64,000 nt of DNA from Bacteriovoracaceae bacterium (GTDB taxonomy: Bacteria; Bdellovibrionota; Bacteriovoracia; Bacteriovoracales; Bacteriovoracaceae). Below are positions 1 to 46,694 of the stretch, piece by piece (the stretch's first letter is position 1; each line of letters begins with the position of its first letter). The stretch lies in assembly GCA_018675575.1 (NCBI GenBank), contig JABGXW010000029.1, positions 21,412-85,411 on the forward strand, written 5' to 3'. The notes under the pieces were generated by a model, which was not told the DNA's origin, did no database searches, and worked only from the letters and a program-made list of their open reading frames with translations. The translations under genes were made by a program, and so were the position numbers.

Positions 1-2961
1 ATGTTATGTCCTCCACCAAATAAAATTGGCTACATGATAATGCTTAGGGGAAAACCAGAAGATCTACCCGAAGAACTTAATAAAATCAAGTTTTATATAA
101 GCAACAAGAATACAAATGATCACTTTGTATTGTCCTGTGGCCCATTAGAAAAAGATCAAATAATCAATCAATTAAATGGCACTAACTTCTCTCCTTATTT
201 ATTGGACAATGTTCATCAACCTTACCATAGTCCTCTAATGGAGGACGTTTCCTACAATTTCCTAGACTACCTTAAGAAAGAAAATTTTCAATTTAAAGAA
301 CCAATTATTCCATATTTTTCAGGAGTTACAAAAGAGATAATTGATAGAGATAATTTTAATCCTAAAAAAATTCTGGCCCTCCTCGCTAATCAAATTGTTA
401 CTCCTGTAGATTTTCCTAATCAAATCAACTCAATAGCGAAAAATAAAACATATACATTCCTGGAGGTTGGCCCAGGCCAATTTTGTACTTCTTGCGTTAA
501 GCGAATATTAAATGATAACAACTATAAGATACTAAAGATAGATAAGTTAGATGGACTAATTAGTCATAAGGTTTCAAACCCAAAAGAAATCAGTACTTCC
601 GTCTTTTTTAAACCAATAAAGTATATCATCGAACGAGTTACTGGTCACAAGGTTTCTGAGGTTGAGTTTAATAAAAGTTTTCAAAACGATTTTGGCATTG
701 ATTCACTAAAGAAAGCTGAGATTGTTTTTGAAGTAATCAAAGAGTCTGAAAAAAACATGAATGTTAAATTTAACAATGAAATCAATCTTGTTGATCTTGA
801 AGTCATCAATGATTTAGTGAACTTACTTGAAGACGAAAGCCAGTCTCAATCTGAATTATCTAAAAAGTCAGTGCCCATAGATATGCATCCTGAAATAGAT
901 TTTTATAATTATCCTGAGCAATTAATACAGTTCACCCTAGATATCAGAAAAACATATAAACATGAAATATATTTAATTACCTCTAATGAAATTCTGTCAT
1001 CTGAAAATAAAGTTAAAACTAAGATCTATCAATCCTTAAATGGCCATATCAATAATGGCAGTTGGATTATTTTTGATATATCCAATTTAATTCACTTAGA
1101 ATTATCACCTTTGACGAATTTTAAGCAGACAGTGATTTCAATTATTCTTTTTTGGCAAAAAACTTTAATCGAGAACAAAGATAGGAGTCTTAAAATTTGT
1201 TTAAAGTTTATTAATTCATTTGAAGAAATGAACCCTTTATTTAATGCTTTTTCAAGTTTTTTCAAGAGTATTCAGCTTGAAAATTCACAGTTTCGGTTTA
1301 AAGGAATTCAAAGTTCATCAGCTTTAGGTCAGGATGAATTATATCAATTACTTTCTACTCCATTTGATAATTCTATTTATAAACTACAAGGCAAATATTT
1401 CAAAATAGGATTTTCAAAAGATACAACAGAAAAAACACAGGTCAATCTCAGCAAAGTACCCTGTATAGTTATAATTGGTGGAGCAGGGGGAATATCCCAA
1501 TCTCTTCTACTTGACCAACCTTTTCCAGTAGAAAGTCAGATATTTTTACTAGGAAGGCGACACAGTAACGATAAAAACATAAAAGATATAATTTTAAGAT
1601 TAAAAAGTTACTACAACCATTTAACTTATTTACAAGTTGACGCATGCAACCATATGGCCTTACGGGACAATTTAAAAAAAGTTCAAGGTGATAAAAATAA
1701 CATAGATCTTTTGATAAATTCTGCTGGTATTGAATATAGCAAAAATTTTATTTATAAAAATTCAGATGAAATAATTAAAGAATTAGATTCTAAATGTATT
1801 ATTTCTCTAAATATCAAAAACTTAACCGACGAAATCAAAATTAATAACATCTTCACATTTTCCTCAATTACGGGTGTTTTTGGAAATAAAGGTCAATCTA
1901 TTTACGCATTTTCAAATGGCTTTATTAATGCTCTCTCACAAAGTTCCTCTAATACTGTAAATTCAAAAGTTATACACTGGCCGGCGTGGGAAGACACAGG
2001 CATGACAGCACTTCCTGGTAACAAATTAGCATTGTTGGACAGACATTTCCATTTAATGCCCAAATATATTGGTAATAAGTTTTTCAGAGATATCTTGTCC
2101 ACTAAAACTCCTCTTAGTAATTTAATTATTTCTGCCCAAGATTTATCAATGTTTCAGCTACATCAATTTAATTATAAATCAATTCGGCCATTTATTGGTA
2201 GTGAGAAAATATCAAACGATCTTAGTTTTTCTTTAAATTTTTCTATACGCTCTCACGTATTTTTGCAGGATCATATTTATAATGGAATCTGCCTTGTTCC
2301 AGGTGCATATATGATATCAATGTTTCTCACAATAGCATTCTTGCATGATATAGAACTAGTTCAAATTAATAATTTTAAAATCTACAATCCTCTAATCATA
2401 AAAGGTGATCAGAATAAAGTTCAATTAATGATTAAGATTGAAAATCAGAAAATGTTTGATGCAAAACTAATTAATCAAAGCAATATTTCTGCTTGTAAAT
2501 TAACTAGTCTCGTTGATTATACAGAAAACAAATGGTGGAGTGAAGATCATGACTTTGATGAAATTACTCCCAAAGTTATTTACGACGATAATCTTTTCCA
2601 TGGTAAAAAATTTCAAACAATAAATAATATACATCTTAAAAAAAACCAGTTAAAAACATCAATAATAATTGCTGATTTACTGCCTTTAACAGGAGTTCAA
2701 AAATTAGATAATTATACTTTATATATAGATACAATTTTTCAACTAATAAATTTACACCCAAATTCTAAATCTCTGAAATTGCCAAATTCCGTATCAAAAT
2801 TATTAATTTTCCCAGATATTATTAATTCAATCAAATTAACTATTTATTGTGAAATAGAAAGAGAAGATAAATTTGAAACCCTTGCGAGGGCAGTAATTTT
2901 AAATGAATTAAATCAAACTTGCATGTTATTAGATGGAATAATTCTTAAGAATATAACTTAG
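1..2961 (+). CDS. PfaA/HglE-type polyketide/PUFA-synthase-like megasynthase, 3-prime part (AT C-terminal half, ACP, KR, DH); the gene continues upstream of the window
   Basis: The ORF is open to the window start. Motifs occur in this order. AT C-terminal half: YHSPLM and FLEVGPGQ, with the GHSxG nucleophile expected upstream of nt 1. ACP: FGIDSL, Ser codon nt 703-705. KR: Rossmann GGAGGIS nt 1477-1497, NSAGI, catalytic Tyr in SIYAFSNG. Hot-dog DH: LQDHxxxGxxxxPGA, His codon nt 2272-2274. AT-ACP-KR-DH is the PfaA-type domain order, not the canonical modular PKS order. Confidence 0.8.
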   Translation: MLCPPPNKIGYMIMLRGKPEDLPEELNKIKFYISNKNTNDHFVLSCGPLEKDQIINQLNGTNFSPYLLDNVHQPYHSPLMEDVSYNFLDYLKKENFQFKEPIIPYFSGVTKEIIDRDNFNPKKILALLANQIVTPVDFPNQINSIAKNKTYTFLEVGPGQFCTSCVKRILNDNNYKILKIDKLDGLISHKVSNPKEISTSVFFKPIKYIIERVTGHKVSEVEFNKSFQNDFGIDSLKKAEIVFEVIKESEKNMNVKFNNEINLVDLEVINDLVNLLEDESQSQSELSKKSVPIDMHPEIDFYNYPEQLIQFTLDIRKTYKHEIYLITSNEILSSENKVKTKIYQSLNGHINNGSWIIFDISNLIHLELSPLTNFKQTVISIILFWQKTLIENKDRSLKICLKFINSFEEMNPLFNAFSSFFKSIQLENSQFRFKGIQSSSALGQDELYQLLSTPFDNSIYKLQGKYFKIGFSKDTTEKTQVNLSKVPCIVIIGGAGGISQSLLLDQPFPVESQIFLLGRRHSNDKNIKDIILRLKSYYNHLTYLQVDACNHMALRDNLKKVQGDKNNIDLLINSAGIEYSKNFIYKNSDEIIKELDSKCIISLNIKNLTDEIKINNIFTFSSITGVFGNKGQSIYAFSNGFINALSQSSSNTVNSKVIHWPAWEDTGMTALPGNKLALLDRHFHLMPKYIGNKFFRDILSTKTPLSNLIISAQDLSMFQLHQFNYKSIRPFIGSEKISNDLSFSLNFSIRSHVFLQDHIYNGICLVPGAYMISMFLTIAFLHDIELVQINNFKIYNPLIIKGDQNKVQLMIKIENQKMFDAKLINQSNISACKLTSLVDYTENKWWSEDHDFDEITPKVIYDDNLFHGKKFQTINNIHLKKNQLKTSIIIADLLPLTGVQKLDNYTLYIDTIFQLINLHPNSKSLKLPNSVSKLLIFPDIINSIKLTIYCEIEREDKFETLARAVILNELNQTCMLLDGIILKNIT

Positions 2962-4649
2962 ATCTTTTCAATTAAATAGTCTTCGATAGCTAAAAATTTC
3001 AAAGGAGATTTTTCAAAAAAATTATAAACATCATTGATATCTTCTACTATCGGTTCCCCCATTGTATTTAAGCTTGTATTCAAGATACAATAAATTCCAG
3101 ATAGGTTTCCATAGTATTTTATTAAGTTATAAAATTTTTCATTTGACTCAAAATGAACAGTCTGAACTCGAGAAGTTTTGTCTTTATGAGTAATTTCTTT
3201 TAACTGATTAGAAAACTTCTCATTTATTGGTAAGGTAAATGACATAAAAGGATTAAGAAAATATTTTTCTACATTAAAATAGAGGTGAACTTTTTCCGCA
3301 AGACAAGCCCCCCCATAGGGTCGAAATTCTTCTCTGAACTTCACCTTGCTATTTAAATAATTCTTTAATTTAGGAAACGAGAGACTGGCCAATAAACTTC
3401 TATGACCTAATGCTCTTTGTCCACATTCGCTTCGGCCCTGAAACCATGCAACAATATTATTTTTATTTAATAATATTGAAACTTCCTTTGATATATTCTC
3501 AAGTTTTGTAACTTTATATTTATTAAAAATTGTAGTTATTTCATGGCCAGTGGGTATTGATAAACTTGATCCATAGTAAGAATGTTGAGCTTTTTTTGCA
3601 ATGACCTTCCATGTAGACCTTTTATCTTTTAAATAGGTGAAGTAAGATAGTCCAAGTGATAATCCCTCATCACCAGGGAAAGGAGGAACATAGATTTGCT
3701 TAAACGTTTTTTGATTAATTAATTCAAAATTATTTGAACAATTTAAAGCACATCCTCCCGTGAAGATTATGTTTTCGTAGTCTGAAAAAGATAATTTAAG
3801 ATCATTAAACTTTCTCTTCATATATTTGGAATATTCATTTTGAGCAGTGGCCGCTAAATCCATATAAAGATTTAGATTCTCTGATTTATCCCAACTGACA
3901 TTATCTGACTTAGAAAATGATTTTGACCAATCTAAGTTCTCTAAGAAGTTAATCCTATCTTTTACAATCATTGGATTTCCAAATGCTGATAATCCCATTA
4001 GCTTTCCGGAGGCCATTTTAGACCCGAACACAAATCTTGCTATATTTTCATAAAAAATTCCTATGCTGTCAGAAAAATATTCATTCATACAAGACTTAGA
4101 GGCTTGAAATTCTTGCCATTCCTTATTTACACATTTAATTTCACCTAAGTTTTGAGTATATACAGACACACTCTCATGTTGATATTTTTTATTTTTAGGT
4201 GCTTCAATTTCCTCTATAACATCGGACTTTCTTGAACCTGACCCATCCACTACAAGAATCAACGACTTTTTAAATGGAGACATTGCCAATGCACAATAGG
4301 CATGTGCATCGTGGTGTCCGATAAACTTTAATTTATTATTATAAACAGAACTATATCTAGTTAACTTTTTAGTTCCTAGATAATTATAAAATGGAAAAGT
4401 CAAATCCATACTTTCTTCATGATCTTTAGGAGTAGTAACATCTCTATTTTCACAAATTATTTCTTCTCCTAGATCTCTAGTATTACAAAGGAGTTCTAAG
4501 GGAAGAAATGGCCAATTGCCAGCATATTTTTTTCTGGTCAGCCTCTCTGTTGATAATATTGTAATATCAGAAATAGAACCATTATAACTAGAGATAGCAC
4601 AAACATTAGAATTATAAATTGTCTTTGCAAGACCTGTAAATGTTTTCAT
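2958..4649 (-). CDS. Carbamoyltransferase, NodU/CmcH/TobZ family
   Basis: 563 aa with HHDAHAYCA, VVDGSG, GGCALN and QRALGHRSLL motifs typical of this family. Its stop overlaps the synthase stop (TTAG). Confidence 0.8.
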   Translation of the reverse strand: MKTFTGLAKTIYNSNVCAISSYNGSISDITILSTERLTRKKYAGNWPFLPLELLCNTRDLGEEIICENRDVTTPKDHEESMDLTFPFYNYLGTKKLTRYSSVYNNKLKFIGHHDAHAYCALAMSPFKKSLILVVDGSGSRKSDVIEEIEAPKNKKYQHESVSVYTQNLGEIKCVNKEWQEFQASKSCMNEYFSDSIGIFYENIARFVFGSKMASGKLMGLSAFGNPMIVKDRINFLENLDWSKSFSKSDNVSWDKSENLNLYMDLAATAQNEYSKYMKRKFNDLKLSFSDYENIIFTGGCALNCSNNFELINQKTFKQIYVPPFPGDEGLSLGLSYFTYLKDKRSTWKVIAKKAQHSYYGSSLSIPTGHEITTIFNKYKVTKLENISKEVSILLNKNNIVAWFQGRSECGQRALGHRSLLASLSFPKLKNYLNSKVKFREEFRPYGGACLAEKVHLYFNVEKYFLNPFMSFTLPINEKFSNQLKEITHKDKTSRVQTVHFESNEKFYNLIKYYGNLSGIYCILNTSLNTMGEPIVEDINDVYNFFEKSPLKFLAIEDYLIEKI

Positions 4650-5510
4650 TTATGAATAGCTTCTTTTTACAATATTAGAATAAACATTAAATCCTGAAGT
4701 TACATCTCCATCGAATACTATTTTTGATTTATCAAGAACAATTAGTCTGTTGCAAATGCTATGGATTTGTTCTCGGTTATGACTGACAAACAAGATCGCT
4801 CCAGATTTATCAATTATATTAATTATTCTTTTTGAAACTTTATCTTTGAAATATTCATCCGCTCCGTCAAAAACTTCATCGAGTATTAATAGATCAGAAC
4901 TTTTTGCTGAGATAACAGATAAACATAACCTTGACTGCATACCCATGCTATATGTTCTAAAAGGTGTATCAATAAATTTTTTCAATTCGCTAAATTTAAT
5001 AGAGTCCTCAATTATTTCTTTCTTCTGTTTATCAGAATATTCTGAATAAATTAGGTTAACTAATAATACAACATTTTCTCTTCCTGTTAACATAGGAAGA
5101 ACACCCACTGAAGTGTTAAATATAAAGCGAACATTTCCATCTATGCATATATCTCCAGTTGTTGGTTTAATCATATCCGTTATACATCTACATAGAGTTG
5201 TTTTTCCAGCTCCATTTATGCCAACAATACCTATCCTTTCATTTTCATAGATATCAAAACTAACCTCCTCTAATACTTGAAATAGTTCAGGAGGGGATGT
5301 GAAGTATGTAATGGGTGATTTTACGAATTGTACAAAAAGATCTCTCATTCCATCAGTTTTAAATTTATCTAGCTCAAATTGTATGGAAAGGTTTTTTATA
5401 GAAGCTATTTTTTTTTTGGGGGTATTTGGTTGTTCATCGCTTTTAAACTTATTCTTTTCTTTAAAATCAAAGGTTTCTTTAATTTGATTTTTTAATTTTA
5501 ATGATGACAT
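4650..5510 (-). CDS. ABC transporter ATP-binding protein, Wzt/TagH/KpsT (polysaccharide-export) type
   Basis: Walker A GINGAGKTT, signature variant YSMGMQSRL (the YSxGM form typical of glycan exporters), Walker B LLILDEV, H-loop VSH. There is an N-terminal extension. No permease partner lies next to it. Confidence 0.8.
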   Translation of the reverse strand: MSSLKLKNQIKETFDFKEKNKFKSDEQPNTPKKKIASIKNLSIQFELDKFKTDGMRDLFVQFVKSPITYFTSPPELFQVLEEVSFDIYENERIGIVGINGAGKTTLCRCITDMIKPTTGDICIDGNVRFIFNTSVGVLPMLTGRENVVLLVNLIYSEYSDKQKKEIIEDSIKFSELKKFIDTPFRTYSMGMQSRLCLSVISAKSSDLLILDEVFDGADEYFKDKVSKRIINIIDKSGAILFVSHNREQIHSICNRLIVLDKSKIVFDGDVTSGFNVYSNIVKRSYS

Positions 5511-5520
5511 TTTTTCTCCA

Positions 5521-6567
5521 TTAATTACTCTTTTTTGAAGTCATATATTTATTTATGAGTCTGATCCTTCTTGATAGCCCAATGACTTGTGAAAGAGGTA
5601 ATTTTTTTTTCATCAATTGTTTTATTAACAAATTATAGTTTTCTTCAATTGTCATTTTGGTCTTCTCATTTAAATTTTGGATTGAATACTTTTCAGGTGT
5701 TCTGAGGTAGTGCAGAGCGACATCCCTTAACTCAAACAAATCGTTGTCTATAAAATAGTGTACCATTTCTGGAAAGTTTTGAATATTTAATGAACTAATT
5801 GTCGTATACGATGTAATGTCCGCATTTGGTAGCTCATTTTTTAGCACTTTTATATTTCTCTCAATCTTTTCCCAGGCAATCCCGGGCCTAATATTCTGGG
5901 CATCTCCATTAATCCCGTCAATACTGATAGAAATTTGTAAATTATTAAACTTTTTTAGATTTTTGATATAGGAGGTTTTTATTGAACTTCCATTAGAATT
6001 AAACTCTAACCTAATATCTGTTCTTTTTAATCTAATTAATTCTTCTAAAAATTCTATTATTTCAGATTGTATAAATGGTTCTCCCCCTGCAATAGTAATT
6101 TTTTTTAATTGATTTAATAGCGGAAAAATATTTTTTTTAATATAGTTTGTATATGTGACAATAGTATTTTCACTACTCCACCTTGAGCTATACTCAGAAC
6201 TACATGTCAAACACTTCATATTACATAGGTTAGAAAATGAAAGGTCTACAGACTCTATTTCTTCTATAGGAGAAGAGGTTATATTGGTATTAATACTTTT
6301 AAATTCTTGTAAAAATACTGACTGTAAACTCTCACCCTTTTGAGTATTTTCTTTTAAAATACAAAATTCACATTGAGGGACAATTTCATCTTTTGACATT
6401 TTTTCTTTTATTAATTTAGATTTATATGAATTTAGAATATCAGCTAAGGGAATTTCATTAATTTCTCCCAAGCAATCACTGGCTTCATAACATGTATATA
6501 TTTTCCCATTCGGTGAAATGAGCACGCTCTTCCACGGCGCAGGGCAATAACTATTATTTATTTTCAT
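5521..6567 (-). CDS. Radical SAM enzyme with N-terminal Cys-rich twitch/SPASM-like module (paralogue 1)
   Basis: N-terminal CPAPW...GKIYTC...C...CEFC module, then the radical SAM triad NLCNMKCLTC (CxxxCxxC), then GGEPF. Confidence 0.7.
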   Translation of the reverse strand: MKINNSYCPAPWKSVLISPNGKIYTCYEASDCLGEINEIPLADILNSYKSKLIKEKMSKDEIVPQCEFCILKENTQKGESLQSVFLQEFKSINTNITSSPIEEIESVDLSFSNLCNMKCLTCSSEYSSRWSSENTIVTYTNYIKKNIFPLLNQLKKITIAGGEPFIQSEIIEFLEELIRLKRTDIRLEFNSNGSSIKTSYIKNLKKFNNLQISISIDGINGDAQNIRPGIAWEKIERNIKVLKNELPNADITSYTTISSLNIQNFPEMVHYFIDNDLFELRDVALHYLRTPEKYSIQNLNEKTKMTIEENYNLLIKQLMKKKLPLSQVIGLSRRIRLINKYMTSKKSN

Positions 6568-6676
6568 ATTTAATAATTTTAATCTATTTTTTAGGTTTAA
6601 TAAATATGATAAAGCCTATTAACTCACATTTCATCTAGAATATCTGTATAATAGCCTGAACGGATGGTGACAAAAG

Positions 6677-7765: not shown

Positions 7766-7783
7766 TACATCTGGATACCAAGT

Positions 7784-8929
7784 ATGAAAACTAACATCAA
7801 TTATATTGATGAGAAACTTAACGAAGCCAAAAATATTATAAATGAATTTGAAAAGTTTGGTTTTCAGAAAAATGGATTCTGCCTTGTACCATTCACAACA
7901 ATAATTCTGGAACCTAATGGAAATGTGGGGGTGTGTCGATTACATGGAACCGATAAAGCTATTGGAAGTTTAAATAATAACACTATTGAAGAGATATGGA
8001 ACGGTACTCATTTAAAGAAATGGCGAAGGGAATTTTTAGACGGGAAACCTGAGATTTGTAAAAATCAAATTAAAAATAAAAATTGTAACTTATGTATTGA
8101 AAATAATAAATTACTTAATTCTGTCGAGTTCAATGAAACTCAAACTACTCCTATTCAAAAATTAACAGCAAACTTCAATGGTTTTTGTAATTTAAAATGT
8201 ATAATGTGTGATGTGTGGACATTACCAAATGGTTACTATAATGAACAAAACTTCTGGGGTCCAGCACGAACAACAATTTTCCCTTTTTTAAAAGAAATAG
8301 ATATGCTTTCAGGGGAACCTTTTCTACAAGCTGACACTTATAAATTGATAAAAGAAGTAAGTAGGGTAAATACAAAATGTAAATGGTCAATTACAACCAA
8401 CGCCCATTGGAAACTTAATCAATCTATAAAAGGCCATCTTGACTTAATTGACATAAAGAATTTAATCATCTCTATAGATAGTGTTAATACAAATACCTAT
8501 TCAAATATTAGAAAAGGCGGAAAGCTAGATGTTGTATTGAAAAATGTAGAACACCTCTTGGATTATCAAGAGCAACGACTTAAAAACAATAAATCAAGTT
8601 TAAATATATATGTAAATTTTCTTGTTCAAAAAGAAAACTGGAATGAAATTTCTGACATGATTCAATACTGCATTTCGAATGAGATCATGCCATTCATTTC
8701 ATTTTGTGAAAGGCCAGAAGAATACAGCTTACTAGATTATGACGAAAAATTGAGAATTGAGATTCTCGAGTTCTATTTTTCAAATTTAACTAAAGTAGAA
8801 CTCTTCTTTAGTCTTAGAGTAATTAGACCACTAATTTTTTCTTTACCTGCAATTTTCAAAGCTGATTTTCTAACTAGACTAAATGACATGTCCTTCAATG
8901 ATACCTATCTCCCTGTAGTAAACTTCTAA
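7784..8929 (+). CDS. Radical SAM enzyme with N-terminal twitch/SPASM-like module (paralogue 2)
   Basis: FCLVPF...PNGNVGVCR...NTIEEIWN...C..C module, then GFCNLKCIMC (CxxxCxxC), GEPFLQ, TTNA-W. Collinear with paralogue 4. Confidence 0.7.
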   Translation: MKTNINYIDEKLNEAKNIINEFEKFGFQKNGFCLVPFTTIILEPNGNVGVCRLHGTDKAIGSLNNNTIEEIWNGTHLKKWRREFLDGKPEICKNQIKNKNCNLCIENNKLLNSVEFNETQTTPIQKLTANFNGFCNLKCIMCDVWTLPNGYYNEQNFWGPARTTIFPFLKEIDMLSGEPFLQADTYKLIKEVSRVNTKCKWSITTNAHWKLNQSIKGHLDLIDIKNLIISIDSVNTNTYSNIRKGGKLDVVLKNVEHLLDYQEQRLKNNKSSLNIYVNFLVQKENWNEISDMIQYCISNEIMPFISFCERPEEYSLLDYDEKLRIEILEFYFSNLTKVELFFSLRVIRPLIFSLPAIFKADFLTRLNDMSFNDTYLPVVNF

Positions 8930-8979
8930 GTGGGTAAAAATGAGCAAACAAAACAACACACTGTTTCGAATTTTTTATA

Positions 8980-10803
8980 ATGCTAATTTGGAGGTTTTTT
9001 TTGGATAAAAATAATAACATATTTTGCCTGGCCCCCTGGGTACATGCTCATGTAGATGTAGAAGGAAAGAGGGCCCTATGTGATTTCAGTGATCCTATAG
9101 AGGGTATCTGTAACAATTTATCTCTGAAAGAGTACTGGAATAGTCCTGAAATTAAAGAAAGAAGAGTCATGATGTTAAATGGTCAAGCACCAAAAGAATG
9201 TCATTCATGTTCTAAACGGAGAATTTCAACAGAACCTCATTGTGTAGAATTTAATAATCCATATAAATACCTTGTACCAACGATATTAAGAAATACCAAA
9301 GTTGACGGATCGACGTCCATGAAGCCATTCTATTATGATTATCGTTTCTCTAATATTTGCAACTTTAGTTGTAAGATGTGTTCAGCACCAAATTCTACAT
9401 TAATTGAAAATGAAACAAGAAAGTTTAATAATATAAATCCTAAACAACCTACGTTATATGAGAATAGAAAAGTTAATAATGAGAAAATATATTTACCTGA
9501 GTTTTTACAGAATATTGAAAAAGGACATGTTCAAAAAATATCCTGGGCCGGGGGAGAAACATTAATCACCCCAGAACACTGGGAGGTCATTAATAAGATA
9601 CTTAATCTTGATATGCAAAAAAAAATATGTCTATCATACAGCACTAATTTTAGTATTGAAAACTACAAAGGTACCAAAATCCTTGATATTCTCAAAGACT
9701 TTAAACATATATCTTATGAATTAAGTTTAGATGGAATTAAGGAGGTAGGTGAATTCATTAGATCCGGATTAAACTGGGAAACATTTTATACGAACTTTAA
9801 GAGTTTACCTATTCGTTCAAATCTCGACATCTCATTTGCTATTACGTTGACCATTCCTGGTATTCTCGATATCAAAAATCTCATCGATTTTCTACTAGAA
9901 GATCGACTTAAATATGTTCCTGTTTTTTGTATTGGAGATTATTCAACCGATGTCATGTCTCCCTTTATTCTTCCGAGACATCTTTATGATCAACTGCTCG
10001 ACAATTTCGAAAAGTTGGTAATAGAATACAATGACCCGTATCTTGATAATTTTATTGATTTGATCCATTCAATGAAAAATACGACAATCATTGAGGAATG
10101 TATCAATCTAGATATTAAAGATTTCATTAGTGCAAGAAAGTTTCATTCATTTAGAGAGCAATTAAATCCGCATCAAATAACATTAAATGAAATTTTCAAA
10201 ATTAAATCACCAGATATTTATAAGTGGTGGTTAAAAAGTGATGATGAACTAATAAAAAGCAGTCTTAGCCTAGTTGAATACAGACACATACTTCACAATA
10301 AAGAATGGGATGATAAACATTCTTATTCCAGCGAAACTTTTCAAGAGAAAGTAATTCTTACGACCACATTTAATTTCACGGGAAACTTAGAAACTTCCCC
10401 TAAGCTATTCTATGGTACAAACTTAATTCGTGAGATTACAGACCCTGTTGAGTATCTAAATAAATTATCAAGGCATATTAATAAAGAAGACAGAGTGTCT
10501 CTGATAGATGCTACTGGGAATATATTCAGTTCATGGCTAAATCGAAAAAACTTAAATTCTTATCAAAATAAAATTATCCTATGGCGTTTGATAAACCTTC
10601 CTGCCGATGAGTGGGATCGGAAATTCCCAAATTTAATTATTTTATCTACAAATTATCTTTCCCCGATCTCTTTCATTCTTCGAAATAAAAATGTAGACAA
10701 TAGATTAATATCTATCATTTGTAAGTTTGAATTTTTGGTTAGCTTCCTTAATCCTGTAATCTCGCTACACTTCAGAGTTCTTTTCAAAAGAAGGGACGAT
10801 TGA
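8980..10803 (+). CDS. Radical SAM enzyme with N-terminal twitch/SPASM-like module plus about 200-aa C-terminal extension of unknown function (paralogue 3)
   Basis: FCLAPW...GKRALC...ECHSC module, NICNFSCKMC triad, WAGGETL. The start is uncertain: there is no SD before ATG 8980, and an upstream ATG at 8940 is one T out of frame across a T8 tract. Confidence 0.65.
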   Translation: MLIWRFFLDKNNNIFCLAPWVHAHVDVEGKRALCDFSDPIEGICNNLSLKEYWNSPEIKERRVMMLNGQAPKECHSCSKRRISTEPHCVEFNNPYKYLVPTILRNTKVDGSTSMKPFYYDYRFSNICNFSCKMCSAPNSTLIENETRKFNNINPKQPTLYENRKVNNEKIYLPEFLQNIEKGHVQKISWAGGETLITPEHWEVINKILNLDMQKKICLSYSTNFSIENYKGTKILDILKDFKHISYELSLDGIKEVGEFIRSGLNWETFYTNFKSLPIRSNLDISFAITLTIPGILDIKNLIDFLLEDRLKYVPVFCIGDYSTDVMSPFILPRHLYDQLLDNFEKLVIEYNDPYLDNFIDLIHSMKNTTIIEECINLDIKDFISARKFHSFREQLNPHQITLNEIFKIKSPDIYKWWLKSDDELIKSSLSLVEYRHILHNKEWDDKHSYSSETFQEKVILTTTFNFTGNLETSPKLFYGTNLIREITDPVEYLNKLSRHINKEDRVSLIDATGNIFSSWLNRKNLNSYQNKIILWRLINLPADEWDRKFPNLIILSTNYLSPISFILRNKNVDNRLISIICKFEFLVSFLNPVISLHFRVLFKRRDD

Positions 10804-11871
10804 GCTGGCTGCAGTAATTAATCTTGAGAACTTACCCTCTGTAAGTAAGTCTAGCATCTTAAAATATTTTATTTGTAAATTATTTGGAAATGTTTCCACA
10901 AGTGCTCTTAATACCCGATGAGATATCAACAATTCACGTTGGGACATTTTTGAAAAATAATACTTAAGTATTTTTTTTCGTTGAGCCAGACCTAGTGTCG
11001 AGGGAGATAAATTCTCAGGGCTGTAAACATATTGAACAAATGGAAATAGATTATTTTCTTCACAGAAATTAAGCATTTCTATTATCTGGAAAGCATTTTC
11101 CCGTTGGATAGAAAAATTAATTTCCAAGTGAAAATCTTTTTCTTTTTGAAAAAGTTTAAGGTCGTCAATTGTTTTAAGTGCATTTCCCAATTTACCTGGA
11201 GCGCGAATAGATTCATAGGTCTTAGGATCTACTGTATCTAAACTAACTGATATACGGTTAATTTTAATTTTTCTCAAATGAGACTTTATTGATTCAGAAA
11301 GAGACCATTGTGCGTTTGTCGTAAAGCGCCAAGACAATGCGGGATTCGAGTCTGCTGCCAGGTTAATTATTTTATATAAATCTGGTTGCAGAAATGGTTC
11401 TCCCGCAAGAGGATCGATTTGTATTAAATTTGGAATGATATGCTTTTTTAAATGTTCCCAGAATCCATCTATTTTATCATATTCATGATTAGGCATGGCC
11501 CATATATTACAAAATGGGCATTGAAGGTTACAAAATCCGTTAATGTCTGGCGATAATCTTAATATTGGAGTTTTTACGACCTCCGAGGCGTCAATGTAGG
11601 GCAATAAATCAAGATTAGAGTGTAGCTTATTACAAGAGTTGTGATTGATATATTCTTTGCATGTTACAATATTTCCAGTTAAAAACTCCAGCCTCCAGTC
11701 ACGAAATTTTTTATTGTTCCAAATCTCTTCAATTGTATTTTCGTGAATATTCCCAAGAACATGACCAATACCCAATTCCCTACATGAGCCTACATGTCCA
11801 TTGGGATTTAGAATCAAACTTGCAAAAGGTACTGGACAAAATACCTTGGGTAGTGATTTACCATTTTTCAT
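10765..11871 (-). CDS. Radical SAM enzyme with N-terminal twitch/SPASM-like module (paralogue 4)
   Basis: FCPVPF...PNGHVGSCR...NTIEEIWN module, GFCNLQCPFC triad, GEPFLQ, TTNAQW. Its 3-prime end overlaps paralogue 3 by 39 nt (convergent). Confidence 0.7.
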   Translation of the reverse strand: MKNGKSLPKVFCPVPFASLILNPNGHVGSCRELGIGHVLGNIHENTIEEIWNNKKFRDWRLEFLTGNIVTCKEYINHNSCNKLHSNLDLLPYIDASEVVKTPILRLSPDINGFCNLQCPFCNIWAMPNHEYDKIDGFWEHLKKHIIPNLIQIDPLAGEPFLQPDLYKIINLAADSNPALSWRFTTNAQWSLSESIKSHLRKIKINRISVSLDTVDPKTYESIRAPGKLGNALKTIDDLKLFQKEKDFHLEINFSIQRENAFQIIEMLNFCEENNLFPFVQYVYSPENLSPSTLGLAQRKKILKYYFSKMSQRELLISHRVLRALVETFPNNLQIKYFKMLDLLTEGKFSRLITAASSIVPSFEKNSEV

Positions 11872-11956
11872 ATTAGATCCATAATCATTTGGTCATTGTT
11901 ATTACTCAGCCTGTGATATATTATATCATTAGTCACATGAAATAGAGGTAATAATT

Positions 11957-12247
11957 ATGACTTCATATGCCAATTCAGATATGGTTATTAAAACTGTAGA
12001 CGATATTGTTACTAGAAAAAATGATAATGGTAGTATCATACTTATGAAAATGAACGACTCAGATAATTTTTTCAAGATTGACGGCATAGCATCAATGATC
12101 TGGCGCGAATCTGTAGACAATGGTCGACAACTTGGTGAAATATTTAAGCTAGTAATTGACGGATATGAAGTTGAGGCCAGCACATTGGAAAAAGATATAG
12201 ACAAATTATTACAAGATCTCAGATCCCACAAACTCATTGTTGAATAA
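11957..12247 (+). CDS. PqqD-family protein (RiPP-recognition-element-like peptide chaperone)
   Basis: 96 aa. The pattern DNGSIILMKM..DNFFKIDGIASMIWRE..NGRQLGEIFKLVIDGYEV....LEKDIDKLLQDLRSHKLIVE follows the PqqD family profile (LN-x-x-a-x-x-iW, y-v-x-x-x-x-x-e-x-Dv-x-x-fl-x-x-L-x-x-x-x-li). Good SD (AGAGGT) 8 nt upstream. Confidence 0.65.
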   Translation: MTSYANSDMVIKTVDDIVTRKNDNGSIILMKMNDSDNFFKIDGIASMIWRESVDNGRQLGEIFKLVIDGYEVEASTLEKDIDKLLQDLRSHKLIVE

Positions 12248-13241
12248 ATCTTAAAACATGATTAAGTGTCTCCTTCTCGTTACTTCCATATATAGTATAG
12301 AACTTCGAATTACTTATTAAATTAAACGCCGCCCAGATTCTCATTAGAAATATCTTAATTTTGGTCCAAAAATCCTTAATCCCAAATTCCCAAAATAATT
12401 CTAGAACCTGAGGTGTGCCGACCCCTAAAATAAAATATAAGAATAAGTCTTGATAAATTTCTATACGTTTTGATTTACCTAAAGAGCTTGTTTTACTGTC
12501 CCTATGTAGAAAAATAATATCTTCTCGTTTTTTTTTATCTTGATTTTTATCGTAAAAAAAATCTGCCCTGAGTAAATACTTTACATCATGATTAGTGCGG
12601 ACAAAATTTGACGTATATCCTTTATCATATTTTAACAATTTATTTTGATCTTTAAATCCTAAACGAAGTGGAAAGTGGAACCTATCCTGTGCGGAAACGA
12701 GAGTTATGTCGTCTGATGAATATTTCAAATTATTCTTTGAATTTAATAAATTTAAACATAGTGTTGATTTTCCAATACCAGAAGCCCCGACAAGAATGAA
12801 GTTCTTTTTCTCATTATATACACACATGGAATGAAGTCTGTGAATTCCGTCTATATCTAACATTTTCCCAACTCTAGACAATGTGGCAAGATAGATTATT
12901 TCTCTAGTTAAAATATCATTCTTTGAAAAGATTTTAATTGCTTCACTATCGAAATTTATTTTGAGAAGAAGTTCATCGTAATAATTAATATATCTACAGT
13001 TTTTATATTCATAGAATACTTTCCCATTATATGTTTTAATATTTTGAGATTGATTGTTAAATCTTAAAAGGTCAGGTTTGTCATAAATATGATCAATTTT
13101 AACATGAACAAGATTTGGTTTTCCTCCATCCGCGAATTCAAAGCTTTTAAAGTCAAATGACACATTCTCCAGAAGGCCATTAACAGGAGAATTGATACTG
13201 ACCATTTTACCTAAAAACAAAAAAAATTTACTTGATAACAT
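12234..13241 (-). CDS. HPr-kinase-related P-loop protein (HprK C-terminal-domain-like kinase)
   Basis: The P-loop LVGASGIGKSTL sits in the context typical of the HprK/P C-terminal domain (GxSGxGKS). The N-terminal half has no recognisable motif. Convergent with the PqqD gene, overlapping it by 14 nt. Confidence 0.55.
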   Translation of the reverse strand: MLSSKFFLFLGKMVSINSPVNGLLENVSFDFKSFEFADGGKPNLVHVKIDHIYDKPDLLRFNNQSQNIKTYNGKVFYEYKNCRYINYYDELLLKINFDSEAIKIFSKNDILTREIIYLATLSRVGKMLDIDGIHRLHSMCVYNEKKNFILVGASGIGKSTLCLNLLNSKNNLKYSSDDITLVSAQDRFHFPLRLGFKDQNKLLKYDKGYTSNFVRTNHDVKYLLRADFFYDKNQDKKKREDIIFLHRDSKTSSLGKSKRIEIYQDLFLYFILGVGTPQVLELFWEFGIKDFWTKIKIFLMRIWAAFNLISNSKFYTIYGSNEKETLNHVLRFIQQ

Positions 13242-14112
13242 GGTATTTCCTAGATAAATAAATCACTATCCCGATAAAAATGGCAATCCCATATGCTATA
13301 TGAATAAGTGGAAAGGTTAAAAAGGCAAGAAAAAAACAACCTATCGACGCGGACGCTCTTGCCAAAGAAAAGGAAAATAAAAAATCTAATGTTAGATAAA
13401 TAATTATTACAGGAGCAATATCAGTTGGAAAAATTAAACCATAAATTAATAGCAAAACAAAAAGGAAAGGAAGAAGGTAAATTATCTTTTTCGGAGCAAA
13501 ATTTACAAGAACATGCTTACCACGCGAAAATGCATAATAATAAATTTTTTTTATTACTTTTATATACGATTTACCAATTGTCCTAGTTACAATTGCCTCT
13601 GGATGATACCAGACATCATTTTTATCAACTCTAGATAAAAACTCATTCTCCTCATTGGGATAGAATCCAGGCTTAAAACCATTATTCTTTAAAAAAAAAT
13701 CCTTATTTATTACCATATTACATAATATTAACTCTCTTTCAGTTGATAATCTGGGACACCCAAGAGAAGAGTATCTAGCTCGAGAACTTTGAAAGGCAAA
13801 CCAAGATTTAAAAATATATGAAAAGAAATATGAATTAAAATTTTCTGATCTTATTAAAGCGGGGCCACCAACGACATTTACCCTATTATTATTAATAAAC
13901 TCTTTGTATTTTGCTAAGATATTTTTTGATAATTCACAATCGTCATCTAGAAATAGTAACCAATCGGAATTTGCCTGCCTAGCTGCCTTATTTCTTTGTT
14001 CTGAGGGATCATTCCCCTCCATACAAATAATTTCATCAACCAGATGAATTTTTTTATTTTTTTTCAGCACAACATTTGATATATTTTTACATGCAATTAT
14101 AATCGTAAACAT
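13228..14112 (-). CDS. Family 2 glycosyltransferase with C-terminal transmembrane segments
   Basis: MFTIIIACKN start typical of GT2, PSEQRN, DxD block LFLDDDCEL, hydrophobic C-terminus. I moved the start to ATG 14112, which removes the divergent overlap with the protease gene. The ORF track extends to 14160. Confidence 0.75.
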   Translation of the reverse strand: MFTIIIACKNISNVVLKKNKKIHLVDEIICMEGNDPSEQRNKAARQANSDWLLFLDDDCELSKNILAKYKEFINNNRVNVVGGPALIRSENFNSYFFSYIFKSWFAFQSSRARYSSLGCPRLSTERELILCNMVINKDFFLKNNGFKPGFYPNEENEFLSRVDKNDVWYHPEAIVTRTIGKSYIKVIKKIYYYAFSRGKHVLVNFAPKKIIYLLPFLFVLLLIYGLIFPTDIAPVIIIYLTLDFLFSFSLARASASIGCFFLAFLTFPLIHIAYGIAIFIGIVIYLSRKYHVIK

Positions 14113-14145
14113 AGTTAAATTATATGAGATTAGGTCAATTAAGTC

Positions 14146-15603
14146 GTGATTAAAAATCATTTTTATTTATATTCTCTATGCTATATTTTTTTTTTATCAC
14201 TAACTTCTGGTTGTTTGGTAAATAATGGTTCACAGTCCCTACTTCCAGCGAAATATGACCTTAGAGAATCTAATATTATCACTCTGCCAAAGAAACAGGC
14301 ATGGGGTACCTGCTGGGCACATTCCGCGATCTCATCAATTGAAAGTAACTTTTTATCAAAGCAAAAAGATAAGTCACTAGCAGAGATAAATTTCTCAGAG
14401 TACCATATGGATAAATTTAATGGATTTAATCGTGATGGGATTAAAGGTGAAGTTCTAAATACTGAAAAAAGCGGGCAAGGAATTGATTTCATAGGTTCAA
14501 ATCTCGACGATAGGCAGTCTGGTCTACTGGTCCATCAAGGTGGTGATATGAGAATAGCTACCGCTTACATTGCAAATAATGGAGGAGTAGTTAATGAAAA
14601 AAAATCTCATTTTATTTCTAACTCCCATCAAGATCACGACGTATTCGGGAACACCTCAATTACTGGGATCAAAAGAAGAGATATGTATCGTTATTATTTT
14701 TCACGAGATATTCAATTTCTAACCTTATTTGGCACAAACAGAGAAAAAAGAATCAAAATCAAAAAGGCCATAATTAATCACGGTGCCGTTTCAAGTGGAC
14801 AGGTTCAAACTAATAAACCTTTCGGTTTCTTTAACAATATGGAGGTTCATTTTCACAATGGTAATAAAGAAATTGACCACGCAATCAGCCTCATTGGATG
14901 GAATGATCACCTAGAAGTTGATGGTCATGTTGGAGCATGGCTAGTAAAAGATAGCTTCCATCAAAGTGAAACGACTGGTAAATATATCAAATACTTTTAT
15001 ATTTTATACGATGATATTCATGTAGCAAAAAACCCATTCCACGGCGGCACATCTTTTGCTAATACTCAATTAGAAAAGTTTAATTCCATTTACACTCATT
15101 CTCTTCATGGATGGAGATACACAAGTACAAATCTAAAAATTAAAGCAGTTGCCAGTAAGTATCTAATATCGCGGGAGAAAAAGATCGCGGGAGTTGGCAT
15201 CTATTCTACTCAAGAAAATTCAAGATATGTGCTAACAATACATTCATCATCACTAGATGGTCCTATTGTTTTTACAAAAGTATCAAAAGTTAAATATCCT
15301 GGATTTCACTTTGTTTCAGCCAACTCCCTAAGCATAAAGTCTGGAATATACTTTATAAAACTGGCTCTAAAACGACCAGCCTATCCATATGATGCCTCAT
15401 CTACAGTTGATGTATTATTAAGTGAGACTACTAAAAAAATACAAGTTAACTCCTCTGCCAACAAGGGAGAAAGTTATTATTTAATTGATGGGCAATGGAA
15501 AGACTTTAGCTCGTACAAAGATAAGCATAACCTTCAAAGAAAAAACAGTCATGCTATGAAATACGATACTGCCAATATCTCAATGAATTTGTATACTCAT
15601 TAA
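14146..15603 (+). CDS. Papain-family (C1) cysteine peptidase, predicted lipoprotein
   Basis: Lipobox LTSG-C after a hydrophobic leader. Active-site Cys block QAWGTCWAHSA (papain Q...CGSCWAFS). His block DHAISLIGWND. C-terminal region of about 200 aa is beta-rich. GTG start. Confidence 0.75.
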   Translation: MIKNHFYLYSLCYIFFLSLTSGCLVNNGSQSLLPAKYDLRESNIITLPKKQAWGTCWAHSAISSIESNFLSKQKDKSLAEINFSEYHMDKFNGFNRDGIKGEVLNTEKSGQGIDFIGSNLDDRQSGLLVHQGGDMRIATAYIANNGGVVNEKKSHFISNSHQDHDVFGNTSITGIKRRDMYRYYFSRDIQFLTLFGTNREKRIKIKKAIINHGAVSSGQVQTNKPFGFFNNMEVHFHNGNKEIDHAISLIGWNDHLEVDGHVGAWLVKDSFHQSETTGKYIKYFYILYDDIHVAKNPFHGGTSFANTQLEKFNSIYTHSLHGWRYTSTNLKIKAVASKYLISREKKIAGVGIYSTQENSRYVLTIHSSSLDGPIVFTKVSKVKYPGFHFVSANSLSIKSGIYFIKLALKRPAYPYDASSTVDVLLSETTKKIQVNSSANKGESYYLIDGQWKDFSSYKDKHNLQRKNSHAMKYDTANISMNLYTH

Positions 15604-38718: not shown

Positions 38719-38727
38719 AACTATCTG

Positions 38728-46591: not shown

Positions 46592-46694
46592 TCAACCTCA
46601 TTCTATGAAAAAAAATACCTGAAAAATTTATCACTTACATACTTTAGGTGACAACTATTAATAACAGCTATATGGCGTCAAAAGCTTTTAAACC

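Follow-up and report, generated by a model that had tools for sequence, protein, structure and literature searches.

A conserved, radical SAM-rich gene island with a putative sugar-tailoring role in a Bacteriovoracaceae bacterium

Results

Gene content of the locus

We analyzed a 64,000-nucleotide stretch of DNA from a Bacteriovoracaceae bacterium (Bdellovibrionota; contig JABGXW010000029.1, positions 21,412 to 85,411), referred to below as the window. Its first 15.6 kb carry twelve consecutive genes that an earlier reading of the sequence (the original prediction) had singled out as a strand-switching biosynthetic locus with polyketide synthase (PKS)-type, radical SAM, peptide-maturation and glycan-type parts. 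All twelve open reading frames (ORFs) were recovered at the same positions and their gene content was confirmed (Table 1). The genes switch strand six times (pattern + - + - + - +), and four convergent pairs overlap at their 3' ends, by 4, 39, 14 and 4 bp, both features being as predicted. When the family assignments were checked against profiles, 11 of the 12 passed curated Pfam thresholds or strongly matched solved structures; the HPr-kinase-like protein failed every threshold. The amidinotransferase gene, which had been listed after all four radical SAM genes, is located between the first and the second of them.

The twelve genes lie inside a variable island of low G+C content (GC), the right boundary of which is a tRNA-Pro gene. 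GC is 0.315 from the start of the window to 30.7 kb, compared to 0.349 to the right, and housekeeping genes begin at 30.8 kb. The tRNA-Pro(tgg) gene stands exactly at this step; no integrase was found among the proteins scanned. There are at least seven transcription units, and intergenic gaps in the core do not exceed 109 bp; scans for promoters and terminators gave no signals above shuffled expectation. A JGI metagenome contig of 326 kb and contigs in ENA also encode proteins of the window.

Table 1. Features of the low-GC island, with their class and the matches on which the assignments are based
Coordinates	Strand	Feature	Class	Basis or remark
1..2961	+	AT-ACP-KR-DH polyketide/fatty-acid-type synthase, C-terminal 986 of 1137 amino acids (aa) in the window	accessory
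2958..4649	-	O-carbamoyltransferase, TobZ/NodU/GdmN/NovN family	core	Carbam_trans_N and Carbam_trans_C above gathering
4650..5510	-	ABC-2-type exporter ATPase, Wzt/TagH-like	core	ABC_tran 80 bits
5521..6567	-	N-terminal-twitch radical SAM enzyme 1 (rSAM1)	core	NF033640 239.7 bits
6677..7765	+	Amidinotransferase, AGAT/StrB1/HsvA/SxtG superfamily	core	PDB phmmer
7784..8929	+	N-terminal-twitch radical SAM enzyme 2 (rSAM2), paralogue of enzyme 4	core	NF033640 85.7 bits
8980..10803	+	N-terminal-twitch radical SAM enzyme 3 (rSAM3), C-terminal extension of ~220 aa	core	NF033640 266.1 bits
10765..11871	-	N-terminal-twitch radical SAM enzyme 4 (rSAM4)	core	NF033640 100.8 bits
11957..12247	+	PqqD-family (RRE-type) small protein, monocistronic	core	PF05402
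12234..13241	-	Predicted PEPCK/HPr-kinase-fold P-loop protein, putative kinase	core	Motif, fold model
13228..14160	-	GT2 glycosyltransferase	core	PF00535 40 bits, DDD motif
14146..15603	+	Secreted papain-family cysteine peptidase with lectin-like domain	accessory	Peptidase_C1 53 bits, Lectin_like 41 bits
15600..17474	-	Polytopic membrane protein, 624 aa, C-terminal TPR-like region		~9-11 transmembrane helices (transmembrane scan)
17440..19242	-	Type-IV-pilin-like protein, 600 aa	accessory or unclassed	N_methyl 20.2 bits vs gathering 21.2
20112..21164	+	Membrane acyltransferase, HGSNAT_cat/DUF1624 type		PF07786 34 bits vs gathering 22
25609..27552	+	BtrN-type radical SAM dehydrogenase (twitch)::DegT-family sugar/cyclitol aminotransferase fusion, 647 aa	core
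27530..28561	+	Zn-dependent alcohol dehydrogenase	core	ADH_N 66 bits; translationally coupled to BtrN::DegT
30707..30783	-	tRNA-Pro(tgg)		ARAGORN; right edge of low-GC island

Conservation in related genomes

A second metagenomic organism, available as a Logan assembly (L006/L018), carries a related island of 37% GC, compared to 31.5% for the island in the window; the comparison is limited to the stretch that was fetched. It keeps 14 window genes at 39-79% identity, and ten of these, with identities of 50-79%, share order and strand pattern in mirrored form: GT2, the kinase-like gene, PqqD, the four N-terminal-twitch radical SAM enzymes, the amidinotransferase, the Wzt-like ATPase and the carbamoyltransferase. 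The four further shared genes encode the BtrN::aminotransferase fusion, the alcohol dehydrogenase and two membrane proteins, the acyltransferase and the polytopic TPR protein. Two convergent overlaps, rSAM3/rSAM4 and PqqD/kinase-like (14 bp), are kept as well. A conserved gene neighborhood, which had been suggested as a check, is thus present; with 14 island genes retained at 39-79% identity in another organism, and order and strand pattern shared by ten of these, the arrangement goes beyond chance.

The order in the relative starts with the polytopic TPR membrane protein, BtrN::DegT, the alcohol dehydrogenase, an HGSNAT-type acyltransferase, GT2, the kinase-like gene and PqqD, and proceeds through rSAM4, rSAM3, rSAM2, the amidinotransferase, rSAM1, the ABC ATPase and the carbamoyltransferase. 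Beyond the latter, L018 has a GT1 gene, a second BtrN-like radical SAM gene (40% identical to the BtrN domain of the fusion), a Peptidase_S74-domain protein, a fifth N-terminal-twitch radical SAM enzyme (277 bits) and further GT1 genes. The BtrN::DegT-alcohol dehydrogenase block is inverted between the two genomes, yet stays within ~15 kb.

The boundaries of the conserved unit differ from those of the twelve-gene group, because the PKS, protease and pilin genes sit where core genes of the relative adjoin. In L006/L018 the carbamoyltransferase gene directly precedes GT1, whereas on the source contig a ketosynthase (KS) gene, located left of the window, and the AT-ACP-KR-DH gene lie between them; the C1 peptidase/pilin-like block, in turn, occupies the spot at which the GT2 and acyltransferase genes of the relative are ~115 bp apart. 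No PKS pair, papain-type protease or pilin was found in the fetched stretch. Compared to the relative, the KS and AT-ACP-KR-DH genes are a two-gene insertion between the carbamoyltransferase and GT1, and this PKS pair appears to be a strain-specific addition, as do the genes for the papain-type protease and the pilin-like protein. It follows from the same comparison that the conserved unit is larger than the twelve genes on both sides and excludes the first and the last of them. To the right of 15.6 kb it takes in the two membrane proteins (polytopic TPR protein and acyltransferase) as well as BtrN::DegT and the alcohol dehydrogenase. To the left of the window it includes GT1, a second BtrN-like radical SAM gene and, judged by synteny with L018, probably a fifth twitch enzyme; on the source contig the KS gene is followed there by GT1, a 248-aa radical SAM/SPASM gene, an S74-domain gene and a 448-aa gene without a Pfam match. 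As counterparts of the genes at this side, L018 has the second BtrN-like radical SAM gene, the fifth twitch enzyme and further GT1 genes. Thus, the idea of a co-inherited biosynthetic locus made of several transcription units stands, and its twelve-gene limits have to be redrawn.

A third lineage (L007/L008) keeps an FG-GAP gene, BtrN::DegT, the alcohol dehydrogenase, the ABC ATPase with an ABC-2 permease, and GT2 with the kinase-like gene, plus a GT9 gene; no PqqD, twitch radical SAM enzymes, amidinotransferase or carbamoyltransferase were found in it. Further copies were sought in several ways. A metagenome scan with the amidinotransferase yielded a single 1.2-kb contig (32% identity), the search for PqqD homologues returned only the query protein, and tblastn of plasmids and phages with rSAM1, rSAM3 and a kinase-like protein from a high-GC lineage found nothing.

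These comparisons bear on the possibility that there is no single product at all, and that the island is a hypervariable mosaic of independent neighbor modules: the GT2/kinase pair, the radical SAM/amidino/carbamoyl set, BtrN::DegT with its dehydrogenase, the PKS, the protease and the pilin. Strain-specific blocks can be demonstrated (KS with PKS; C1 peptidase with pilin), the inversion and the seven or more transcription units, with uninformative promoter and terminator scans, fit such a mosaic, and modules occur by themselves: BtrN::DegT and the dehydrogenase in L007 without the twitch enzymes, amidinotransferase, carbamoyltransferase and PqqD, and the GT2/kinase-like pair alone in five other genomes (L009-L013, see below). 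Nevertheless, the order, strands and overlaps of a ten-gene core are kept at 50-79% identity on differing GC backgrounds, which is hard to account for without functional coupling. Moreover, rearrangement has not separated BtrN::DegT and the dehydrogenase from the GT2/kinase-like pair, to which they remain linked in three genomes, and a set of PqqD, radical SAM, DegT, GT2 and kinase-like genes recurs in a 56%-GC lineage. We consider the mosaic explanation quite improbable.

Candidate genes for sugar tailoring and membrane-associated steps

The fusion protein combines two enzyme types known from aminocyclitol pathways. Residues 2-244 match BtrN in PDB (4m7s, E 1.4e-56) along the entire length of BtrN, and the aminotransferase half matches the Kdo8N transaminase (E 2.8e-52) as well as Gln:scyllo-inositol and 2-deoxy-scyllo-inosose aminotransferases; orthologues are 68% identical in L006 and 53% in L007. 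The coupled alcohol dehydrogenase (orthologues 58% and 47% identical, respectively) shows weak matches to scyllo-inosose 3-dehydrogenase and threonine dehydrogenase. The amidinotransferase had zero Pfam or NCBIfam matches at E<=0.01; it aligns at full length with HsvA, AGAT, StrB1 and SxtG (E 6.5e-58 to 2.3e-49, phmmer against PDB), including the active-site Cys, His and Asp of the characterized relatives, and has a 79% identical orthologue in L006. The carbamoyltransferase (67% in L006) scores 188 bits with Carbam_trans_C and matches TobZ, GdmN and NovN in PDB (E ~1e-41).

Several proteins point to the membrane. The best NCBIfam models for the ABC ATPase are Wzt/RfbE (148 bits, cut-off 400) and TagH (125 bits, cut-off 320); the L006 orthologue is 73% identical, and that of L007, which has an ABC2_membrane gene next to it, 50%. 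No homologue of the L007 or L021 permeases was found within the whole 64-kb window. The membrane acyltransferase has a 40% identical orthologue in L006. The polytopic protein has an FDDD motif in its first loop, weak TPR matches, and a 39% identical homologue at the start of L006, adjoining BtrN::DegT. It had been called a GT-C transferase; this could not be verified, as there was no Pfam, NCBIfam or PDB match above noise, and the GT-C-like architecture is suggested by its transmembrane helices and weak TPR signals.

The accessory genes were characterized as well. The synthase has KR (78 bits) and PKS_DH_N (34 bits) Pfam matches and partial FabD and ACP matches in NCBIfam, and its translation shows a DSL phosphopantetheine site and an HxxxGxxxxP dehydratase motif. 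Its description as the end of a PfaA-type synthase proved wrong: on the source contig from JGI the full gene encodes 1137 aa with a single ACP, a separate 681-aa KS gene lies upstream, and the model for PfaA-type polyunsaturated fatty acid synthases (TIGR02813) gives 90.8 bits against a cut-off of 1010. The lipid or polyketide character ascribed to ACP-KR-DH holds for the protein, which is accessory to the locus according to the syntenic relative. The C1 peptidase, with a lipobox-like N-terminus and visible Cys and His motifs, has no homologue in the L006/L018 stretch. The pilin-like protein starts with a class-III-signal-like G/FSLVEV and is a possible acceptor of the product; the gene was not seen in the fetched L006 stretch. 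The protein has a repeat-rich C-terminal region, with a run of VGNTxVTGT-type repeats, and a Cys-rich C-terminus; its gene has a locally raised GC (0.39) and overlaps the start of the polytopic membrane protein gene by 35 bp. The last island gene before the tRNA (28562-30340, minus strand) encodes a 592-aa protein resembling flavin-dependent halogenases and geranylgeranyl reductases, and is not conserved in L006.

Twitch radical SAM enzymes

The radical SAM assignments hold for all four enzymes, each of which passes the Pfam gathering scores for Radical_SAM and SPASM; the SPASM/twitch match is N-terminal to the CX3CX2C core. The corresponding NCBIfam model, NF033640 (N_Twi_rSAM, twitch domain-containing radical SAM protein), has a cut-off of 170 bits, exceeded by enzymes 1 and 3; enzymes 2 and 4 fall below it and are outlying paralogues of the same architecture. 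For rSAM1 (60% orthologue in L006), the scores are 62 bits for Radical_SAM and 35 bits for SPASM at residues 8-69. C26, C66, C115, C119, C122 and G162-E163 are invariant, and G161 and P164 of the GGEP motif nearly so. The other enzymes are similarly conserved: rSAM2 (68%; SPASM 40 bits at residues 33-94, Radical_SAM 35 bits), rSAM3 (53%) and rSAM4 (70%; SPASM 42 bits, Radical_SAM 42.5 bits). No PDB sequence match was found for rSAM3, and its residues 391-607 have no Pfam match.

The AlphaFold2 (AF2) model of rSAM1, with a mean predicted local distance difference test score (pLDDT) of 92.5, matches the folds of CteB, SkfB, SuiB, anSME, viperin, BlsE and MoaA. Because these folds are generic for SPASM/twitch enzymes, the chemistry of the twitch enzymes cannot be assigned from them. 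We found no characterized member of NF033640, and the genomic contexts of distant homologues are mutually unrelated and uninformative. One such homologue lies on a 138-kb ENA contig (L014), in what resembles a large phage genome with thymidylate synthase, DHFR, numerous small ORFs and a TauD-family gene.

The kinase-like P-loop family and its glycosyltransferase partner

The kinase-like protein of the window has no match to PF07475, and its scores with TIGR04352 (21.5 bits) and TIGR04355 (18.8 bits) are far below the cut-offs of 200; among 11 family members, only one matches PF07475 (E 8e-6). The family conserves GxSGxGKST...SDD, with G157-K158 and S176 invariant and D177 nearly invariant. When the family profile was compared to PDB, the top four matches were HPr kinases (E 0.005-0.04). 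A Foldseek search with the AF2 model (pLDDT 86, predicted template-modeling score 0.87) matched ATP-PEPCK over the whole length (E 5.5e-9, query-normalized TM-score ~0.6), followed by HprK/P (E 1.5e-3). Thus the HPr-kinase-like call, which failed as a profile match, holds at the level of predicted structure: the product is modeled as a P-loop protein of the PEPCK/HprK fold. A kinase function is plausible on this basis, and the substrate could equally be a small molecule or a peptide. An exhaustive search with hidden Markov models yielded at least 637 clusters (50% identity) at E<=1e-30, nearly all of ~335 aa. The family is without an NCBIfam model of its own, and its members, where named, are called only "hypothetical".

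The adjoining GT2 gene (52% orthologue in L006) is translationally coupled to the kinase-like gene and encodes three predicted C-terminal transmembrane (TM) helices; it has weak matches to MftF-type models. GT2 adjoins the kinase-like gene in nine loci outside the window (L006-L013, L020, L021) that represent five kinds of context. In five metagenome-assembled genomes (MAGs) of Bacteriovoracales (L009-L013), the pair occupies a core-genome slot downstream of grpE-dnaK-dnaJ, flanked by a Peripla_BP_6/TPR gene and the gene that follows it; no PqqD was found there by tblastn, nor any linked radical SAM maturase. In the window this slot (46592-46891) is empty, a spacer of 300 bp, and homologues of the pair are limited to the island copies (28% and 34% identity), which may have taken the place of a core-genome pair.

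Three distant high-GC lineages (L020-L022) have the kinase-like gene in glycosyltransferase-rich loci. In L020 (56% GC), one strand carries GT4, GT4, a small ORF (orf39), DegT, an AprD4-family radical SAM gene and PqqD, and the other GT4, GT2 and the kinase-like gene. The radical SAM protein matches the AprD4 family, which is of the sugar diol-dehydratase type, at E 4.6e-60, below the equivalog cut-off. Since PqqD is translationally coupled there to an AprD4-like radical SAM enzyme and a sugar aminotransferase, it travels with sugar chemistry in this lineage. L021 comprises an ABC-2 transporter, a double GT2, a signal-peptidase-like protein, GT2, the kinase-like gene and GT4; L022 comprises an ABC exporter, two GT2, GT1, GT4 and a B12-radical SAM gene, with the kinase-like gene divergent and no GT2 directly adjoining it. 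Small soluble proteins resembling signal peptidase I adjoin the ABC-2 transporter in L007 (7000-7368; TIGR02228, E 2e-11) and L021 (5265-5711) and have no counterpart in the window.

In an 880-aa ENA metagenome protein (P0153), a B12-binding radical SAM enzyme is fused to a kinase-like domain; the best model is TIGR03975 (E 2.4e-40). This fusion is a Rosetta-stone link between the kinase-like family and radical SAM enzymes. Another protein (P0110), which looked like a GT2::kinase fusion, was rejected: there is no match to GT2 or to a Pfam family for its N-terminal 340 aa, which probably result from an over-extended gene call.

A broader interpretation of these loci is that the window holds an elaborate version of a widespread, undescribed system, in which GT2 and the PEPCK/HPr-kinase-fold protein recruit DegT, PqqD and radical SAM enzymes of N-terminal-twitch, BtrN-like or B12/AprD4-like types. 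We regard this as possible, albeit doubtful. If true, it would mean either that PqqD-type RiPP recognition elements (RRE; RiPP, a peptide made by ribosomes and modified after translation) have a role outside peptide maturation, guiding radical SAM enzymes on sugar- or lipid-linked substrates, or that there is a new class of ribosomal peptides or proteins carrying a phospho-linked, radically tailored guanidino- and carbamoyl-sugar.

PqqD and the search for a precursor peptide

The PqqD assignment was borne out by the profile search: PF05402 is matched with 40.2 bits (gathering 23.4; E 4.2e-10), and the L006 orthologue is 64% identical. The nearest NCBIfam models are those of lasso B1 proteins, NF033536 (lasso_PqqD_Bac; 26.2 vs 80 bits) and NF033530 (24.6 vs 70). 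We compared all ORFs of 15-120 aa between 1 and 30.4 kb of the window to L006; apart from shadows of large genes in other frames, PqqD alone is conserved. The larger gaps at 19.2 kb and 30.3 kb contain no convincing ORF, and one of them holds the tRNA. No gene in 1-30.3 kb has an Asn_synthase or transglutaminase Pfam match that would indicate a lasso cyclase or B2 protease.

Two small ORFs elsewhere deserve mention. A 35-aa, very basic ORF at 46770-46877 (plus strand; MGQGRKRQTLKMNRKKSQRKLKARLKRAIEAGKNK) is 60-76% identical to ORFs in L009-L013, where it directly follows the kinase-like gene; it shows third-position variation and an upstream GAGG, has no Pfam match, and is probably a real, unannotated small protein. 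Given its distance of 33 kb to the island and the lack of conservation of its Ser, it was rejected as a substrate peptide and appears to be an independent small gene. In L020, the 39-aa Lys-rich orf39 (2845-2964, minus strand; MAPKKKNSSNKPSAAKKGKKKYETPDLVKHGVLSIVEGD) lies between DegT and GT4 and can be considered a candidate precursor peptide, but the other loci yielded no homologue.

Genes to the right of the island

Beyond the tRNA, the window is collinear with the five Bacteriovoracales MAG loci from 40.6 to 56.6 kb (DnaK 79%, MreB 95-97% identical), which agrees with the placement in Bdellovibrionota. Three consecutive FHA-domain proteins are encoded within 34.5-40.3 kb (35229-40293), preceded by a gene with a weak SpoIIE-like phosphatase match (34489-35226) with a T2SSF gene (40630-41532) after them. 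At 60443-63517, the minus strand carries three ORFs of 325 aa in tandem.

Discussion

We tentatively favor, at somewhat under an even chance, the explanation that the island is a conserved locus for sugar or aminocyclitol tailoring and glycoconjugate assembly, serving a surface structure. Judged from the enzyme families, the most likely product is a sugar with amino, guanidino and carbamoyl decorations. In butirosin biosynthesis, BtrN oxidizes an aminocyclitol between two transaminations, and by analogy the BtrN::DegT fusion would suit the conversion of hydroxyls into amines. According to this model, the fusion and the coupled Zn-dependent alcohol dehydrogenase would turn one or more sugar or cyclitol hydroxyls into amines by oxidation followed by transamination, the amidinotransferase would convert an amine into a guanidino group, and the TobZ-type enzyme would O-carbamoylate a hydroxyl. 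The four twitch radical SAM enzymes (genome-wide probably five) may subject this scaffold to additional radical reactions, such as epimerization, deoxygenation or C-C/C-H chemistry. The PEPCK/HprK-fold protein would phosphorylate the unit or its acceptor, its membrane-anchored GT2 partner would transfer a sugar at the membrane, and the GT1 enzymes encoded just left of the window may extend the product. Finally, its modification, export or attachment to a surface acceptor would fall to the Wzt-like ATPase, the polytopic TPR protein and the membrane acyltransferase. These three proteins, together with the TM-bearing GT2 and the GT1 enzymes, place assembly at the membrane. The model does not account for PqqD, although it is conserved in the locus. 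The glycosyltransferase-rich loci in which the kinase-like family occurs in distant lineages also speak for this explanation. Variable surface-glycan islands often have a low GC and a tRNA at their boundary, as this island does, and of the two readings offered by the original prediction, an exotic surface-glycan or glycosylation island fits better than a hybrid peptide-like product, the RiPP component of which comes without a detectable precursor peptide.

The same enzymes could instead make a diffusible molecule that the predator exports, similar to aminoglycosides or aminocyclitols and not bound to the cell, for example a pseudo-saccharide with guanidino and carbamoyl substituents, along the lines of antibiotics that contain streptidine or bluensidine. 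The nearest characterized relatives of four core enzymes are indeed from aminoglycoside or related antibiotic pathways (BtrN, the scyllo aminotransferases, StrB1 and TobZ). A second BtrN-like radical SAM gene is linked in L018, with a syntenic 248-aa radical SAM/SPASM gene left of the window, and the analogous L020 locus has an AprD4-family enzyme. StrB1-type amidination in streptomycin biosynthesis needs a phosphorylated inosamine and hence a kinase; this would be a possible function of the kinase-like protein. However, the scanned island proteins include no cyclitol synthase, no producer-type resistance gene was noticed, and the Wzt/TagH-type ATPase, TM-anchored GT2, membrane acyltransferase and polytopic TPR protein indicate membrane-associated assembly. 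In addition, the position of the GT2/kinase-like pair by dnaKJ in five related MAGs suggests cell-envelope housekeeping and not secondary metabolism. A diffusible product seems to us rather improbable.

Several points weigh against the sugar-tailoring locus as well. The full core is found in only two genomes, and co-inheritance rests on few independent observations. All substrate assignments are based on family-level homology, and the GT-C assignment of the polytopic protein is unverified. Among the island proteins scanned, there is no cyclitol-forming enzyme (2-deoxy-scyllo-inosose (DOI) synthase or inositol-1-phosphate synthase), which may be encoded elsewhere, no nucleotide-sugar synthase or flippase, and no Wzm permease; no initiating phosphoglycosyltransferase of the WecA/WbaP type was found, with no Bac_transf or Glycos_transf_4 match in the island. 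The remaining objections concern peptides. To our knowledge, the PqqD family consists only of peptide-binding chaperones, and a PqqD that is above the Pfam threshold and 64% conserved argues for a peptide or protein in the pathway. The best NCBIfam matches of both the window and the L020 PqqD are lasso B1 chaperones, and peptidases recur near GT2 and the kinase-like gene (C1 in the window, S8 in L007, and signal-peptidase-like proteins in both L007 and L021). For lasso precursors, HPr-kinase homologues are known that phosphorylate the C-terminal Ser, with hexoses being added to this phosphate by another enzyme (PMC8498205).

These objections are at the same time the case for a RiPP-type or protein-directed pathway with a phospho-glycopeptide product. 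PqqD would present a peptide or protein encoded elsewhere, the twitch enzymes would modify it, and the kinase-like protein would phosphorylate Ser/Thr; GT2 would then, in the manner of phosphoglycosylated lasso peptides, glycosylate the phosphate or the residue, the sugar would be aminated, amidinated and carbamoylated, and the peptidase and ABC ATPase would finish and export the product. Such a pathway also agrees with the fused B12-radical SAM enzyme P0153, which is best matched by a model for RiPP maturation radical SAM C-methyltransferases, with the Lys-rich ORF in the 56%-GC genome L020, and with the rSAM1 model, which is nearest in fold to the peptide-modifying SPASM enzymes CteB, SkfB, SuiB and anSME. 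It lacks its defining part, however, because no precursor peptide is detectable: there is no conserved small ORF in or next to the core, and orf39 of L020 has no detectable counterpart elsewhere. A lasso cyclase and a B2 protease are absent as well, PqqD scores far below the lasso B1 cut-offs, and the C1 peptidase, a secreted lipoprotein, has no counterpart in the relative's fetched stretch. Furthermore, the N-terminal-twitch family has no known peptide substrate, the fold matches include viperin, BlsE and MoaA, and in L009-L013 GT2 and the kinase-like gene occur without a detected PqqD or a linked radical SAM maturase. On balance, we find the peptide-directed pathway unlikely.

As had been predicted, no matching characterized pathway was found; the literature searched, which is incompletely searchable, contained no description of a locus with such a gene combination. 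What is new is the undescribed combination; what is known is the general type, a glycan or secondary-metabolite cluster built from known superfamilies. The N-terminal-twitch radical SAM family and the kinase-like family, both core, are without known function. If the sugar-tailoring reading is correct, guanidino- and carbamoyl-decorated sugars or cyclitols, i.e., aminoglycoside chemistry, would occur in the cell envelope of predatory Bdellovibrionota, and NF033640 and the kinase-like family would gain a first functional context. It also raises the testable question of whether a PqqD/RRE chaperone can act in a sugar pathway. For genome mining, the locus shows that the combination of PqqD, radical SAM and kinase is insufficient to call a RiPP cluster. 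It should be noted, as a practical limit, that this marine organism is uncultured.

Comparison with known systems

Among RRE-containing RiPP systems, pyrroloquinoline quinone (PQQ), mycofactocin (with its GT2, MftF) and the phosphorylated or phosphoglycosylated lasso peptides paeninodin and pseudomycoidin resemble the locus in having a discrete PqqD next to SPASM/twitch radical SAM enzymes and, in part, an HPr-kinase-superfamily protein paired with a glycosyl-transferring enzyme, and the GT2 of the window has its weak MftF-type matches. In contrast to these systems, the locus is without a precursor peptide, lasso cyclase, B2 protease or cytoplasmic leader peptidase. Its twitch domain is N-terminal to the radical SAM core, whereas theirs is C-terminal, and the PqqD and kinase scores are far under the curated lasso and HprK-related cut-offs.

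Systems that use polyprenyl-phosphate sugars and periplasmic GT-C enzymes include ArnC/ArnT, GtrB/Gtr, Ppm/Pmt and the pilin-glycosylating TfpW. The locus resembles such systems in its GT2 with C-terminal TM helices, its polytopic protein with a soluble C-terminal repeat domain and the pilin-like gene that immediately adjoins. However, the GT-C identity of the polytopic protein cannot be demonstrated by sequence, no flippase of the GtrA/ArnEF type was seen, and the pilin gene was not seen in the fetched stretch of the relative.

The Wzm/Wzt O-antigen and TagGH teichoic acid loci are comparable in several respects: a Wzt/TagH-like ATPase with several GT1, GT2 and GT4 genes, a low-GC variable island next to a tRNA, and, in L007 and L021, an ABC-2 permease and ATPase beside GT2 and the kinase-like gene. 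Polysaccharide loci that depend on ABC transporters include kinase-based chain termination (WbdD of E. coli O9a), and by analogy a kinase could cap or mark the glycan here. The differences are that the window has no Wzm permease and no initiating phosphoglycosyltransferase, that the ATPase scores 148 bits against the cut-off of 400, and that the kinase-like protein is predicted to have the PEPCK/HprK fold, whereas WbdD has a protein-kinase fold. The content of radical SAM enzymes (seven genome-wide, the two left of the window being counted by synteny) exceeds that of any O-antigen locus known to us.

Aminoglycoside and aminocyclitol pathways (butirosin with BtrN and BtrS-type enzymes, streptomycin with StrB1, tobramycin/nebramycin with TobZ, and apramycin with AprD4) differ from the locus in their hosts, which are actinomycetes or Bacillus and not a Bdellovibrionota predator, and in the DOI or inositol-phosphate synthase, which the island does not have. 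Conversely, the locus has several parts that are not known to us from any aminoglycoside cluster: the TM-anchored GT2, the Wzt-like ATPase, the membrane acyltransferase, PqqD, the four to five N-terminal-twitch radical SAM enzymes and the PEPCK/HprK-fold protein. The tailoring enzymes nevertheless resemble those of the locus, at the level of family homology: a full-length BtrN is fused to the class of aminotransferase that flanks the BtrN step, the amidinotransferase is equally close to StrB1 and AGAT, the carbamoyltransferase belongs to the TobZ family, and an AprD4-family radical SAM enzyme is present in L020.

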